Shown: positions 1 through 25,450, counted from the first letter of the stretch. The stretch is 64,000 nucleotides of DNA from an uncultured Nitrososphaerales archaeon (GCA_963709405.1 CAVPXM010000030.1:160001-224000); one strand, 5' to 3'. Notes: generated by a model not told the origin, from the letters alone. Translations and numbers: made by a program.

Positions 1-462
1 GACCTTGATAGAAAATATTATGGTATACAGGACTTTTTCGAGAAGCATCCAAAATCAAGGATTATGAAAAAAATAGGTAGACCAATAAGATTAGCTCCAC
101 CCAAACGGATGGAACCATTTAAGTCTGGCAATGTGATAGGTGTGGGAGAATCGATTGGATGCGTTTTTCCTATGCTGGGAGAAGGCATTATACCTTCTCT
201 ATTATGCTGTGACTTATTTCTCGACTCTTTGGAGGAAAGCAGTATTATCAATTTTGATGAATATAGAAGAAAAGTACTGAAAAAATTTGCATATTACGAT
301 GACGTTTACAGAATTGTAAGATTGAAAATGGAAAATAAATTGAACATGGTTAGACATCTCAATTTAGTAATGAGCATGTATAGGAATATGAAAAGGGAAG
401 AGAAAAGGTTTGGGTTTGAAATAAACTTTGGTAAAATGAGAAGATTAGTAAATGCCTTGTAG
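1..462 (+). CDS. Geranylgeranyl reductase-family FAD oxidoreductase, C-terminal part (5' end outside window)
   Basis: Frame open from base 1; VGESIGCVFPMLGEGI matches the GD/E-A-G...P..GEGI FAD motif of the GGR family. Confidence 0.75.
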   Translation, partial: DLDRKYYGIQDFFEKHPKSRIMKKIGRPIRLAPPKRMEPFKSGNVIGVGESIGCVFPMLGEGIIPSLLCCDLFLDSLEESSIINFDEYRRKVLKKFAYYDDVYRIVRLKMENKLNMVRHLNLVMSMYRNMKREEKRFGFEINFGKMRRLVNAL

Positions 463-18744: not shown

Positions 18745-19810
18745 TTCTGGGGATAGTTTTGATCCCCTTGTAAAATAAAAACCCACTTTTTTAATTAATG
18801 CCTATACGGGCTTGCGACCTTGTCTCATTATTATCTGGCCTACCCGACATCCTAATATCTGTCAGCAGTTCAGGGATGAGTCGCATCTCATTTGAAAATT
18901 CCTTTAAAAGAGAACTATATCATCAATTAGGTTTTAGTCAAGTCCATTATAACATTTTGAATAATTGTAAAAATATAGACAAACTCGTGACCGGTCCCCA
19001 ACTAATTATTTTCGAAATTCATTGATAGGACTATCTTAAGATAACAAAGTGCTAATGCGGATAAAATTCTCAATCACTCTTTTGTGCTTAAAAAAGCGTT
19101 ATTTTGTACTCGCATGGAGACAGAATTAATAGATGCAATTGCACGGACAAACAGTGAGGAATTTTGGTATCAATGCTTGCAGTCTAATGTAGTCGAGGGT
19201 TGCAAAATATGTGATTATAGACTTGATAAGCATAAGATGAAAAACATTAAAGTACGATAGTTTTGAAATACTGCTCAGGAGAACATATACTTAATATGAA
19301 ACTCAATTCGGATTTCGGCGAAGATGCCGGGATGAAATTTAACCTCGAAAATCATAGCATGAAATTGAAAAAAGTAGGCAAGCAATATTATCAAACCAGT
19401 TAATAAAGCCCTTTTAGACCATAAATGGATAGTTACTATGTTTGGACGCACTGCTGACTGCGTATGTCAAAGAGAATGGTCGGACATTAAAGTTAGAATT
19501 TGATCCGATTGACAACATCCTTGCCGTGCATAAGGCCGATTGAATGAAAATGGATATAGAATGTGCAAAGGTGCCTTGAAGTCTTGCTTACCTACACAAT
19601 CTGTTTAAATACAGAAATAATTGGTGAAGCTCGGAACCAAGTTATAGGTTCGAAATCTCAATATGCACAAGCCAATGAATAGTAGCATTGTCCCCTCATT
19701 ATTTTCGGCATCTTGTGTCGCCATTAACTCATTTTAGGTATGTCACAGACAGAAAACCAAAGTAGTAAAGTTCGTTGACACATAAGAAGAAAGACTAAAA
19801 AAGATACATG

Positions 19811-20050
19811 TCACGAGTTCGTGACATTAAAGTGCCAGTCACTATTAGTGACTGGTAAAATTGGGCTCCTATTTAAAAATGGTGATCGAGGTATCAATCC
19901 TTTAACAGCTTCAATCTTAGCAGTATGAGTATCTGTGAGGATATTTGCGCCCTTTTTCACAGTTTCGACCCTTCCGGTATTTTTTCTTAGGGTTATACAT
20001 GGAATCCCTAGTAGATAAGACTCCTTTTGTATTCCTCCTGAATCTGCCAA
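19811..20050 (-). pseudogene. wecB: UDP-N-acetylglucosamine 2-epimerase, C-terminal relic
   Basis: DSGGIQKE, PCITLRKNT and ETV..GANIL motifs; joined directly to a truncated GT. Confidence 0.85.
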
Positions 20051-20588
20051 GTACTCTGATTATGTCACACTTACCAGTCTCCTGCAACGAATCTAATATC
20101 GCCGAATAAACATCATCATGCCCATACATTTTATAATAAGGATAATGGGCTATTCTGACTCTCCCTTCACGTTTATTTTCTGCCCGCGCTACCAACTCGT
20201 CGATATACACTGGACTAGGAAGCCACGTTCCATTAGGGGCATATTGTAACAAGTCAGGAGTCGAGACGATACAAAAATCATCATCATGCTTCCCCCTAAG
20301 ATCGTCACCGTGATAATGCTTGATGTATATCTTTCCACGTTTTCGTTTTTCTAAACCCACTCTTAACGAGCCGTACGGATAATGATAATGCCATATATCA
20401 TATTCTTGCAACCTTCTAAATACTTTCCACCTTGAAAAAGGGGATTTGTAATTTATCATAATTCCACCAAACTGATGATAGATCTTTGTGTTGAATACAT
20501 AAACATCCGACAAATGTCCTTGTAATGTTTGCACCCGGGAAAGAGCAGAGCCGATACCTGAGGTATTGTTTATATGCGCAATTTTCAT
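20050..20588 (-). pseudogene. N-terminal half of GT-B glycosyltransferase family B, truncated
   Basis: Closely parallels the 12379-13395 product up to CDIIRVL, then runs into wecB sequence. Confidence 0.8.
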
Positions 20589-20690
20589 GTCCGTGGTAAC
20601 TAGTAAAGTGACATAATAGATAATGAACCTATTGAGATCGCAGGAATAAAACGTAGTATAGAAATAACTAGTTGAAAAACCAGTAAATTC

Positions 20691-21622
20691 CTAAATTTCA
20701 GAATTTTTATCAACGTGCATCTTGTATTTTTTCTCAAGAATCTGATACTTTTGTAAGTCGACAAGTCTATTGAATTCATCGAACGTAGTCATCATCTTTC
20801 TGTGTTTTACTGTCGTTACCTTTCCTTTTTAACTCTGTAAAGACTTCATTAACTGCGTAAGTAGCTCGGATATAATCCTGATAATGGGAAAACGGCAATT
20901 CTATATCCAATATCAAGGAGTCGTTTTGCGTTCATATTCGGTGTGATTCCATCTTCGATTATGTTTGCGACCAATGGCGCGTCAATTTCGTTAGTAACTT
21001 TCTTTAATTCTGCAACTGATCTTGGAGCTTCTATAAAAATCACGTCTGCACCAACCTCTCGGTATGCTCTTCCGCGTCTTATAGCTCTCATCCAATCCTA
21101 GCGGTGCTCTCGAATCTGTTCTCGCAACTACAATGAACTCTTTGCTCTTCCTTGCTTCCAGAGGCCTCCTCTCAACTTCGAGATATAATCTTCCATTCCG
21201 ATAACATCTTTACCTTGCATATGTCCGCATCTTTTTGGCCAGATTTGATCTTCTATAAAGATACCGGCCGCGCCTATCGATTCTAAATCGCGAACGATTT
21301 TCCAAACGGTTAACGGATTGCCATAGCCTGTGTCTATATCGACTATAACTGGCGAATCCACAGATCGAATAATTCGAGTTGCATTCTCTATCGTTTCGCC
21401 AGCATTTAAGAAGCCGTAGTCTGGCATTCCAAGCAGCGAAGCAGCAGAACCGTATCCGGTCTGAAACATAGCATCAAATCCAACATTCTCCGCTATTTTT
21501 GCAGTCAATGCATCAAAAACTCCTGGAAGAACGAGAATATTCTTCTTGTCCTCAATCTTTTCTCTTAAAGATTTATTATTTTTCTGCTTCCTCAATTGCT
21601 TTTGTCTAAAAGGAGATTGCAA
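20691..21622 (-). CDS. prpB: Isocitrate lyase/PEP mutase superfamily protein, methylisocitrate lyase-like (frameshifted)
   Basis: DIDTGYG, IEDQIWPKRCGH, ARTDS, GADVIFIEAP; C-terminus MTTFDEFN in a third frame. Confidence 0.75.
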
Positions 21623-22450: not shown

Positions 22451-22638
22451 TTTTATGATTCAATTTCCCCTATGACGCAGATTGTATCGACCTCCACTAT
22501 TAATTGAAACAGTAATAGAGTAAGTGTCTCGATTGTATTTTTAACCCGATTCGAGCCGCTGCTTTCTAACCCATATATTGCCAAACACTAATCGGTCGAT
22601 CACATTGTTGGGAAGGAATCGGTTTATGTGATATAAAA

Positions 22639-22707
22639 CCCCCTAGTTGTAACACGATCACCCTAGACGCAACACATTACGAGAACTCCCGGCTTCGCAA
22701 CAGCACT
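22639..22707. mobile_element. Orphan end of a related IS6-like element
   Basis: Reverse complement reads AGTGCTGTTGCGAAGCCGGG; CCC..GCAAC-type motifs lie 19, 46 and 66 bp from the tip, like the neighbouring element's ends. Confidence 0.7.
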
Positions 22708-22829
22708 TTCTAAGGAGTCCTGCTGCAATATCGGGCTCTATTCACTAGCGTTGCATTCGGGTGCTAAGTGTTGCACGACGGGAGCTTATTAATTTATAAA
22801 TAGTCTTCTATAACATTATACGAGAAGTA

Positions 22830-23294
22830 TTGTCGGATGATTAGAAGAAGCAAAGAGACTTGCTACTAATTATTTAGAGGCTCAGTTAAAAATGGCTGAA
22901 AAGCTTTTATTGTTAGATGATTCTGATATCCAGAAGTTCAACAAGTGGTACAAGAGTTTCCCCTATGGACGTCATTGCCTGCTAGATTACTTGAGTTAAA
23001 TAATAGGAGAAATAAAACCAAGCAATAAATATCATTTAATTTCATATTGAAGTTATTGAGCAAGCCTGAAGCACCGCCATTTGATTTATTAACACTATAT
23101 AAAAACTTGGAGAGTCTTGGGAGGATTTTATCATTCAAACTAATGCGGTCATGATGACCAATTATGATGCATGGTTCGACTCAACTTGTAAATACCTTTG
23201 CGATTTCCTTAAACCTCAGGTTCGAGCATGGCTTGAGGCAAATTCTAGGCAGTTAGTAGAAAAGAAAAGTCAGAGAACTGCTCCACTTCAGTAA
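22830..23294 (+). pseudogene. Decayed passenger gene inside the element
   Basis: Protein-like segments LEEAKRLATNYLEAQLKMAEKLLLL... and ...WFDSTCKYLCDFLKPQVRAWLEAN... split by stops; TATA-like TTTATAAA at 22793-22800. Confidence 0.4.
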
Positions 23295-23535
23295 GTAATT
23301 ATTTGGAATAAGAGATGCGAATGCAGCGTATGGTATGTCCAGCGCTGAAGCGAAATATTGGAAAAAAATAGGCATTGCAACAGGCTACAACTGGTGAGCA
23401 TTGCCCTAGTGGCAGTGGGAGCCATAGTAGCCTACCTCAAACTAGCGAACAGTTGCGACTGCTAATAACAGTCAAGTAGTCCACCTAAGACAACCCTCAT
23501 TTTTTCAGCCATAATAATGTGTCGAGTCGTCAGCT

Positions 23536-24462
23536 TTAAACATTTTGCTTCTTAATCCAGCAACTCTCCTTCCCGTAAGAAAACCACGAAAAGCCATGCT
23601 CTATTAATATCTCGTTAATATCTCTCCAGTCTTTCTTATTCATCCAGTCTTTAGGTTTGATTTCGATGCTATCATCTTTACGAATTATATCTAGTTTATT
23701 AACTCTAATACCTAATTCGAAAATGAACGGCTCCACTTTCCCTTTAACCGCCGCCTGTCTCATTAGGCTTTCCACTTTGTTATGACCTAAATGCAGTTCT
23801 AACCCTGCTTTTTCTGCGGGTGTCTGCTTCTTTAATGCCTGATGAGGTCTAATGAAATTATGATGAATACGCATGGCATCGACTAGTTCCTGTGTGGGAT
23901 TTGCTTTGTCCAATCCATGCATGACGCTTTCTCTATCCCTTACGGTTTCATTCAGCCATTCGACCTTCGAGTTTAATCCCTGATGTCCTGAGCCTATGCT
24001 TCTGACGTTTTGGATCTTCGGATTCTTTAGAGTAAAAAGTTCTTTATTAAACGCATCGTCATAGGCTGGTAGTCCATCATGAATTAGAGCTGAAGGTAAG
24101 GGTGCGCGCCGTTTCATCTCCTTAAATAGCGCTACACCTGATTTGGTGTCACGTTTCTGGCTTATCCTAGAGCATATCCAGAATCTAGTAGTAGAATCCA
24201 TTAGATTCCATAGCCATGAATAGTGATTATCGAACTGTCTGTTAGGGTGGTTCTCTGGATTGCTTAGCATCATCTTAGATTCATTATTTTCCTTACGGAC
24301 ATGTAGCATCATTTCGTCTACCTGATAAACACCTCCGACCTGTGGCACCAAACTGTCCACATATGGCTTAACTGTATTACTGAACTTACGTAACCATCTA
24401 CAGATAGAAGAGCAATTAATTCTAAAGTCGTAGAACTGTTTCAGAAGGTCTGCTATTTTACG
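23536..24462 (-). pseudogene. IS6-family DDE transposase, N-terminally truncated
   Basis: HTH RKIADLLKQFY...SICRW in frame upstream of the ORF call with no start; VDEM, WLWNLMD, IHDGLPAY, NSKVE, HHNFIRPHQAL..TPAE. Confidence 0.85.
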
Positions 24463-24505
24463 CTACGGCCAAATGGTTTATAATGAAAGTTTACAAATTC
24501 TTCAA

Positions 24506-24763
24506 TTATCGTATTTCTATGTATGAGTAGTCTTTCTTCACATCTGTTCCGCGCTTCATTTCTTTTCTCGAATTTGTAACTAAAAAACCTGTCAGTACTT
24601 CCGAAATTATGAGTCCCAGTAGTAGAAGATTTGGAACGGTTCCCTCCTTCTGTCCGAAAATTAGGCCTAATTGAGCCCCAAATAGCACGACTACGAGTAT
24701 CGTCACAAGTATACCTATGGAAATTATTGTACCAAGGATGTGACGCCGTGTGAACCGTATCAT
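24506..24763 (-). CDS. Small two-TM passenger protein
   Basis: 85-aa ATG ORF with two hydrophobic helices; TATA-like sequence ~25-30 bp upstream, just inside the right end. Confidence 0.55.
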   Translation of the reverse strand: MIRFTRRHILGTIISIGILVTILVVVLFGAQLGLIFGQKEGTVPNLLLLGLIISEVLTGFLVTNSRKEMKRGTDVKKDYSYIEIR

Positions 24764-24903
24764 GACGAAATATTCTCCTTCGTAGCGATATAAATAACTT
24801 AATAAACTTCAGTAGATCGGCAGAGACTCCCGGTATGCAACGTCTAGCACCCGAATGCATCAGTCATTCAAAGCTCCCGATTTTGCAGCAGGACTTTCTA
24901 AGG

Positions 24904-24914
24904 AAAAGAATATA
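24904..24914 (+). promoter_or_regulatory. Putative BRE/TATA of the PadR gene
   Basis: AAAAGAATATA about 27-37 bp upstream of the ATG at 24941, spacing typical of leaderless archaeal mRNAs. Confidence 0.5.
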
Positions 24915-24940
24915 ACTGTCACTAGCGATATTAGCAGTGG

Positions 24941-25450
24941 ATGCTTTCGCATTGGTTTTCTCGTGTTGGTAGTTCTATTCCAAGAGGATTTTCTAGACAT
25001 TATGTTTTGGGTTTACTTAAGGAAAAACCAATGACAGGAAAGGAGATCATGGACAGAGCAATATATGAAAGTGACGGAAAATGGAGGCCATCTCCGGGCT
25101 TGATATATCCTATGCTGGGAAGATTACTTGAAGAGGGTCTAATCGATGAAATAGAAAACGGCAGATATAGGACTACCCAGAGCGGGGAAGATACAGCTGC
25201 TGATATGAAATCTTTGCACAACATTGTACAAAAGCAGTTAGATGTTATACTTCGAGTGGGAAACGTGGGCAAATTTATGGCGTTTGATCTGATAGATAGA
25301 GTGTCTGCAATAGGATCCGCACTGAGTTCAAATCTAGATAGAATGACCGAACAAGAAAAGGAAAAATACAAAGAATTTCTCTTAACTGAGTTAGCCAAAC
25401 TTGACGACCAAGAAAATATCAATCAGAAGATCACTTTAGAGCAAGAATAG
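24941..25450 (+). CDS. PadR-family transcriptional regulator
   Basis: PMTGKEIM...[21 protein letters not shown]. Confidence 0.9.

Follow-up and report, generated by a model that had tools for sequence, protein, structure and literature searches.

Window element and its neighbourhood

We analysed a 64,000-nt stretch of DNA from an uncultured Nitrososphaerales archaeon, hereafter the window, in which positions 22716-24895 form a 2180-bp element with terminal inverted repeats identical at 19 of 20 positions. Exact copies of the target duplication TTCTAAGG flank it on the left (22708..22715, + strand) and on the right (24896..24903, + strand), as the initial annotation of this DNA had described; the left copy is also the spacer between two facing ends. 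The transposase-distal end (22716..22784, + strand) consists of an IS6-like tip and three bipartite repeats with motif cores at 22724-22735, 22752-22761 and 22772-22782, and the transposase-proximal end (24827..24895, - strand) likewise has a tip and three repeats, phased as in the distal end. TGCA-N2-4-CGGG occurs three times in each end, and on both sides the copies span positions 9-20, 37-46 and 57-67, counted from the tip; three motifs per end had been noted before, with inner edges at 19, 45 and 66, one less than the 20, 46 and 67 counted here. Compared end against end, the repeats are identical at 19/22, 15/17 and 12/16 positions (75-88%) and the spacers at 5/11 and 1/3, which bears out the earlier statement that the DNA between the motifs has diverged. 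The single motif is found 142 times in the 4.8-Mb genome and is paired only in the window ends and one related end on contig C92, so the pairing is not due to chance. The bipartite repeats are likely transposase-binding sites.

Just inside each end, an inward TATA-like box is predicted ahead of a passenger frame, at 22793..22802 (+ strand, score 7.7 with a matrix trained on this genome) and at 24787..24794 (- strand, score 8.4). The left box precedes ORF A (22841..22999, + strand, 52 codons), a pseudogene of a small helical family that lacks a Pfam match; the frame had been annotated as an ORF at 22830+, which does not hold, as it has no in-frame start and is preceded by a stop. Homologues of ORF A lie inside six other elements or alleles (L065/C92, L067, L068, L090, L240 and L277), and its family recurs just inside the ends of other elements. 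The right box stands 31 nt before the ATG (24763) of ORF C (24506..24763, - strand), which had been annotated as a passenger; it is intact and encodes 85 aa with two hydrophobic segments. Among the loci compared, no homologue was found for ORF C or for a doubtful 47-codon ORF at 23151..23294 (+ strand).

The transposase gene (23536..24462, - strand) is truncated at its 5' side and encodes a partial HTH, the DDE core and a C-terminal extension. Its product has 308 aa vs about 476-500 in close relatives, with the first ~171 residues absent. The frame begins at residue 172 of a 476-aa relative to which it is 75% identical, so the SWIM and Zn-ribbon domains have been lost, whereas the predicted DDE residues D220, D300 and E339 (P0002 numbering) are retained. 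Likeness to the C92 allele ends at 24463. With a truncated transposase and one broken passenger, the window copy is dead, a non-autonomous copy unable to move itself, and in this respect the initial proposal is not supported. Several ORFs to the left of the element (19800-21622) also look fragmented, and the main TBP gene is split across two open frames (G000:C47:56649-57165); frameshifts in this assembly may partly be assembly errors.

The left duplication separates the element from an older solo end with three repeats (22634..22707, - strand, detected with nhmmer), which has its tip at 22707 and faces the element head to head. Six ends were recovered across the genome by nhmmer, namely the solo end, its C92 allele and those of two elements. 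The search of the assembly yielded no partner for the solo end. Contig C92 of the same assembly has a near-identical left flank and the same old end, with 10 bases lost at the junction, and thus duplicates the window locus as the result of a strain mixture. After the old end, C92 continues into a different 2.7-kb element with other cargo; C92 and the window have the distal end in common and differ on the promoter side. This C92 element (G000:C92:8000-17022, L065) contains a frameshifted full-length transposase gene, a membrane protein gene and a divergent small ORF whose product resembles a ribbon-helix-helix protein.

Contigs from sequencing runs X3, X5 and X7, which come from three studies, carry the C92-type element and extend from it into the padR promoter. 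In run X8, one contig has the solo end, like C92, and lacks the element: 22700 is followed directly by 24889, with the element and one duplication absent, which could represent either the state before insertion or the outcome of a deletion between two direct-repeat ends. The window's own cargo was covered by none of the sequencing runs compared. A single base thus occurs in three states in close strains, with the window element, with a C92-type element, or with none.

On the right, the duplication lies flush against a host promoter (24904..24919, + strand) composed of a purine-rich BRE-like stretch (24904-24909) and a TATA-like stretch that is weak in the window (score 0.2) and strong at the same place in many relatives. 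It is followed by the palindrome TCACTAGCGATAT (24918..24931, + strand), whose core starts 24 nt from the element tip and which is likely the operator of a regulator that we infer to be of the PadR family. The gene behind it (24941..25450, + strand) encodes a PadR-family regulator (Pfam PF03551, above cut-off), and its promoter is the main hot spot described below. The solo end, the flush host promoter and the target-site rule had all been missed in the initial annotation, and the target-site rule is a more unusual property than the end design that it had emphasised.

Transposon family, transposase and cargo

A full-length transposase query matched 100 of 238 host-family genomes at E 1e-10, a count that takes in distant relatives and two unpublished genomes. 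A model of the ends found matches in 51/150 host-family genomes and in 32/150 across the order, and a second end model did so in 48/97 genomes of a distant family. Such a scan had been proposed at the outset; the subterminal repeats do recur across the clade, but their number varies. Relatives came from Nitrososphaeraceae, and atlas clusters with the same architecture were mostly from Nitrososphaerota, with others from Bathyarchaeota and viruses.

The family transposase is a single ORF that combines a SWIM domain (1-86), a Zn ribbon, an HTH (150-207) and an IS6-like DDE core. The SWIM residues are invariant in 87 sequences. The structure model of this domain reached a pLDDT of 90, and its best fold matches were ZSWIM8 (Z 6.3, rmsd 3.6, 75 aligned) and Shu1:Shu2 (Z 4.5); a SWIM profile had no match among PDB sequences, and Foldseek with the SWIM model gave no significant match. 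The full-length transposase model was poor (pLDDT 58), fold searches with it gave mainly HTH matches, and Foldseek returned none at E 0.001.

One clade (44 tree rows, SH-aLRT 100) adds a 65-aa C-terminal domain, which matched only unnamed archaeal proteins, mostly from Bathyarchaeota. The predicted fold of this domain (P0002 residues 410-476) is that of stand-alone small Bathyarchaeota proteins (TM 0.84-0.85). Its gain coincides with that of a third end repeat: the repeat pattern was found at least three times per end in 35/44 ends of the extension clade, and elements with short transposases had at most two repeats in 31/31, although the pattern missed many divergent repeats there, which were then read by eye. 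Extension and third repeat represent one evolutionary event and do not amount to a statistical correlation. Three motifs per end characterise only the extension clade, and short-transposase relatives have two. Within the clade, repeats recur at offsets 5, 33 and 53 (or 64).

From 221 ends we derived the consensus AGTTCTGTTGCAAA; the ends are 55-85 bp long and multi-repeat. Pairing ends by target duplication gave 33 intervals of 166-6682 bp with varied cargo, including cargo-only and MITE-sized ones; some are duplicates or nested, the 8-bp repeat had at least 7 matches, and 8 bp was the only length tested. Full elements measure 2.5-6.7 kb, encode transposases of 370-500 aa and carry cargo on both sides. 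This upholds the initial view of archaeal IS6 relatives that carry passengers and have ends with several phased repeats. A Pfam match at E 0.001 was obtained for 21 of the 115 internal ORFs in 29 intervals, and PADLOC, applied to 46 internal ORFs, detected a Kiwa pair (L082) and an AAA ATPase resembling those of defence systems (L008). The KwaA-KwaB pair (L082:1204-3224) lies in an element at a sufC promoter. Around five more distant transposase remnants in the window's genome, no pair of terminal repeats with a target duplication was found.

Insertion at a fixed offset upstream of promoters

We started from 221 distinct end junctions and dropped those with fewer than 50 flank bases and 10 mis-tipped ones. 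Of the 209 scored junctions, 135 face other DNA, and at 74 the facing sequence, 8 nt away, is another end or a remnant of one. The 135 were clustered into 87 flank loci; kin are not independent, and a few same-locus duplicates (aCPSF1, one padR flank) were left by the clustering. The largest cluster is the padR promoter, with 31 junctions and 29 duplication sequences, followed by sufC with 11 junctions and 10 duplication sequences, counts that include inherited insertions. The duplicated 8 bp themselves are unconstrained in sequence. Elements at padR are 32-100% identical to P0002 in their transposases and belong to several tree branches, and suf sites were used by both long and short transposases.

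The palindrome C[AGT]CTAG[CT]GAT, with one mismatch allowed, starts 22-25 nt from the tip at 15/87 loci, of which one is a short padR flank missed by clustering, and all other positions together gave 5 hits; genome background would predict 0.12 loci at that distance. The operator offset was 24 in 40 of 47 junctions when searched within 21-26. Conversely, a set of 39 distinct padR promoters, chosen by similarity of the gene or by the operator pattern, includes 14 with a tip at offset 23-24; one further match, at 26, is spurious. Offset controls for this promoter scan (1-8 hits) did not serve as a null, since inner repeats of genuine ends had raised their counts. Besides padR, operator sites precede genes for aminopeptidase N and a CopA-type ATPase, and an HtrA protease gene has a more divergent palindrome.

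For the TATA test, 14 loci that were short or resembled decayed ends were removed, leaving 73. A TATA core was present at +12..15 in 23/73 loci, compared with a mean of 4.0 in other windows (0/2000 permutations). With a matrix trained on genome ORFs, a box fell in +12..15 at 7 of 59 non-operator loci vs 0-2 in other windows. The genes behind non-operator sites include SSB, rpl11, rpoN, TFB, aCPSF1, sufB and sufC, and in five of these seven the start codon lies 43-47 nt from the tip. At sufB and sufC, the TATA stays at +14 while the palindromes are 6 nt apart. At operator sites, by contrast, the best TATA offset scatters over 13-19, and TATA scores are negative at L214, L218 and L243; together with the tight operator offset, this favours an operator anchor at those sites. 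No box was found in the peak window at 50/73 loci in Nitrososphaeraceae and at 60/76 in the distant family; about half of the flank loci are expected to be back sides of elements. Some TSD-paired elements (L438) have no evident promoter on either side. A scan for sigma-70 promoters was at chance (8 vs 6.1) and is not applicable to these hosts, and a clade-specific target code was rejected, as target classes scatter over the tree (quick method, SH-aLRT only).

In ends from other families, the TATA-like box lies further out, and an offset of +18..22 was predicted before 60 new stretches of the distant family were fetched. These gave 110 ends outside the training set. Set aside were 1 end without flank, 11 whose tips were unclean and 7 in tandem, and the remaining 91 grouped into 80 loci. 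A TATA core was present at +18..21 in 18/80 loci (0/2000 permutations); once 4 loci also present in the training data were excluded, the figure was 16/76, and no other window had more than 3. Transposases of these families are 28-33% identical to P0002 and keep the SWIM domain. The insertion offset is thus sharp and clade-specific, and selection alone does not explain it. Repeatedly hit loci of the distant family (L410, L429, L463, L475, L400, L480 and L466) also have a TTCAC...GTGAA-like motif 13-14 nt from the tip, and several of these loci lack a TATA at +18..21. This TCAC-type motif is possibly a second operator-type hot spot.

Tandem elements have one duplication in common (L008, L079, L109, L066/L090/L121 and L077). 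At L079:800-5645, three or more elements form an array in which copies of the low-complexity duplication TCTTCTTC separate one element from the next. By hand count of 17 target-adjacent elements, the transposase 5' end points to the promoter in 9 and away from it in 8. Taken together, we regard promoter targeting itself as highly probable.

Possible anchor and relation to known transposons

We lean towards a reading in which the window element is a non-autonomous copy of an archaeal cargo family that inserts at a fixed distance upstream of promoters, probably through docking on TBP-TFB, with SWIM as the predicted adaptor. Several transposase protomers would bind the end repeats, and the complex would be positioned by a host protein, not by the duplicated bases. 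The transposase would dock on promoter-bound TBP-TFB through its N-terminal SWIM domain, placing strand transfer just upstream of the BRE. Such an insertion would leave BRE, TATA and operator intact, so that the promoter would continue to serve the host gene and the target would be restored. Subsequent elements would insert between the previous element and the promoter, giving tandem arrays with one shared duplication, and old members would decay to solo ends such as 22634-22707. Promoters with an operator between TATA and start, as in the padR regulon and at suf, are hot spots, probably because a bound repressor keeps TBP-TFB in place in the absence of polymerase or supplies a further contact. 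We favour TBP-TFB since a single TATA offset is seen at housekeeping promoters that have no operator in common, and SWIM as adaptor since every member examined has this domain in addition to the IS6 core. Speaking against this reading are the tighter operator offset and the three sites with negative TATA scores among operator sites, the majority of flank loci with no box in the peak window, the TCAC-type loci of the distant family, and a MITE, described below, whose flanks share no promoter offset. More tentative, and in our judgement somewhat likelier to need revision than to stand as it is, is the wider proposal that an undescribed family docks via SWIM on the TBP-TFB pre-initiation complex, as a counterpart of Ty3 targeting, making promoters of conserved genes renewable pads for arrays with defence and membrane-protein cargo across Nitrososphaerales.

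The anchor could instead be a sequence-specific regulator on its operator (PadR-family, suf or others) or any tight DNA-bending protein, with TATA enriched as operators accompany promoters. The operator offset of 24 in 40/47 junctions against a TATA scatter of 13-19, the three operator sites without TATA, an operator at +24 in another family too (L385) and the TCAC motifs at repeatedly hit loci all fit such an anchor. We nevertheless consider it rather unlikely, since the TATA offset is also kept at housekeeping promoters that share no operator, the TATA is constant at +14 in sufB and sufC while the palindromes differ by 6 nt, and the strict operator also stands at 35 listed genome places without these ends. 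Direct reading of promoter DNA by the transposase, by way of its SWIM, Zn-ribbon or C-terminal domain and with no host protein, would account for fixed clade-specific offsets as a fixed protein reach, and a MITE described below has the palindrome internally. Against direct reading, be it of an AT-rich, bendable TATA-like stretch or of a palindrome, the motifs differ among sites (TATA only, padR operator, suf palindrome, TCAC motif) and transposases only 32-70% identical use the same base, which makes it quite improbable in our view.

Random insertion followed by selection might purge all but the copies just upstream of promoters, since archaea have little space between genes and pay a price when a gene is interrupted. 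Peaks 3-4 nt wide that depend on the clade (+14, +19) and have no upstream tail, and the reuse of one padR base with 29 different duplications, leave this account scarcely credible. Insertion aimed next to existing ends, with hot spots as old inherited single insertions that seeded arrays, agrees with the 74/209 junctions facing an end or remnant 8 nt away and with the window insertion, itself 8 nt from an older end; IS911, IS30 and IS26 (conservative targeting) are comparable, with IS26 and IS911 as precedents in the accessible text of PMC7986276. The same offset is seen, however, where host DNA lies on both sides (L002, L068, L095 and L224) and at dozens of unrelated loci, and the two alleles of the window locus share the distal end and differ at the promoter side. 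As a full explanation, end-adjacent targeting is therefore very unlikely, while it may add to array growth.

The core of the family is close to IS6/IS26. Its transposases score above the PF13610 cut-off, have NF033587 as the best NCBIfam model and carry an HTH N-terminal to the DDE_Tnp_IS240 core, yet all five transposases scanned reached 54-105 bits vs the curated IS6 cut-off of 125 bits. The family tip consensus is 13/14 identical to the 14-bp IS6/IS26 TIR consensus GGTTCTGTTGCAAA given in the available text of PMC6807381; the window ends match it at 10/14 and 11/14, and G7 is present in 99% of the 221 family ends. The GG tip differs, being present in only 38/221 ends of this first set and common in the distant family. 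The 8-bp target duplication is a further likeness, and TSD-flanked copies fit simple insertion and resolved cointegrates alike. According to the same part of PMC6807381, strict IS6/IS26 elements measure 700-900 bp, are filled by one ORF of 210-255 aa and have GG ends, whereas the family has SWIM and Zn-ribbon domains, larger size, cargo, multi-repeat ends, promoter-fixed targets and arrays. IS6/IS26 as treated in the accessible sections of PMC6807381 and PMC7986276 includes archaeal clades and long clostridial members with Zn fingers, and those of the latter, an IS6 review, name one passenger-carrying member, ISDsp3. Judged by its sequences, the family is not IS6/IS26 in the strict sense, departing in size, GG tips and model score and agreeing in tip consensus, core and duplication. 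The IS1 model reached 45-56 of 100 bits in four full-length family transposases. The ISMhu11 group of IS1 presumably combines a Zn ribbon, an HTH and an IS1-type DDE with extensions and passengers; our literature search found no defining paper for it.

Functionally, the nearest system is ISLre2/TnGBS (p-MULT 3), which inserts 15-17 bp upstream of sigmaA promoters and for which a Ty3-like tether to the initiation complex has been proposed (PMC3942029, accessible text). Both keep a fixed distance upstream of promoters, deduced here from TATA-like boxes and gene starts. ISLre2/TnGBS elements are Mutator-type and use bacterial sigmaA promoters, in contrast to the IS6-like core, archaeal BRE/TATA, strong hot spots and arrays of our family, whose matches to IS256/Mutator models cover mainly the HTH and stay far below the NCBIfam cut-off, with IS6 scoring higher. 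The family also inserts in either orientation, not in one as ISLre2/TnGBS does; ISKra4-type members insert in both (PMC3942029, same text). Ty3, whose integration is positioned by TFIIIB (cited there), is the model for a TBP-TFB tether, but it is a eukaryotic LTR retroelement at Pol III genes and the family consists of DNA transposons with a putative tether. The ISAba32 subgroup of IS1202, as described in the accessible portion of bioRxiv 10.1101/2022.12.17.520857, is likewise a DDE insertion sequence that keeps a constant distance to a site bound by a host protein, and differs in using XerCD sites, a 5-bp duplication and a fixed orientation in bacteria.

Harmless insertion at a regenerated site, a habit of Tn7, together with tandem accumulation and cargo with defence genes, links the family to Tn7 and casposons (casposon tandem integration: PMC6563490, accessible text), but here a single ORF does the job and many sites are used. 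No TnsC/TnsD-like helper, Cas1 or polymerase was recurrent in family elements. The Tn7/Mu/IS21-like end design suggested initially applies to the arrangement of several repeated, putative binding sites per end; an IS21/Tn7-type AAA+ helper was not recurrent, and the 115 ORFs of 29 intervals included one AAA-family ATPase, which is defence-like.

Within the literature searched, which excluded ISfinder and subscription journals, nothing relevant was found on an archaeal promoter-targeting or SWIM-bearing IS6-like transposon. Passenger-carrying DNA transposons are among the classes not detected in archaea according to the accessible text of a review of thaumarchaeal mobile elements (PMC6563490), and the 244 thaumarchaeal insertion sequences in its supplement may include family members under the IS6 name. 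Promoter targeting is known from bacteria and yeast (PMC3942029, accessible text). We thus describe promoter-fixed insertion in a cargo-carrying family of IS6-related archaeal transposons, a habit that we did not find described for archaea in that literature. The promoter-targeting transposons found in print are bacterial Mutator-type elements, and an IS6-like family here unites targeting and cargo in a large group of soil archaea. Its habit accounts for the repeated occurrence of foreign-gene islands upstream of padR and suf. It also opens the role of SWIM in prokaryotic transposases to direct testing and provides a simple system in which to ask if the initiation complex of archaea, which is eukaryote-like, can be read by a DNA transposase. 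If the docking model is true, the prokaryotic SWIM domain would gain a concrete job, and a single-protein, promoter-safe integrase with clade-tunable spacing could become a tool for ammonia-oxidising archaea.

The padR operator itself has a wider distribution. An operator-plus-start pattern matched in 100/238 host-family genomes vs 1 control match; it is highly conserved, often with two palindromes in tandem (window 24918-24940 and relatives), and also precedes copA-like, pepN-like and other genes, which suggests a PadR regulon in Nitrososphaeraceae. No published description of the regulator and its operator was found in our literature search. The palindrome also lies inside a ~104-bp MITE with IS6-like tips, which has 14 matches in the genome (including G000:C23:30681-30785, C63:248322-248424 and C30:245538-245642) and 8-bp duplications at some copies. 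Read by eye, the flanks of the 14 hits had no common promoter offset. This MITE could spread operator sites through the genome, and a second dispersed repeat family of 100-200 bp has the palindrome as well (G000:C6:31648, C4:9086, C21:303913, C43:13699 and others).
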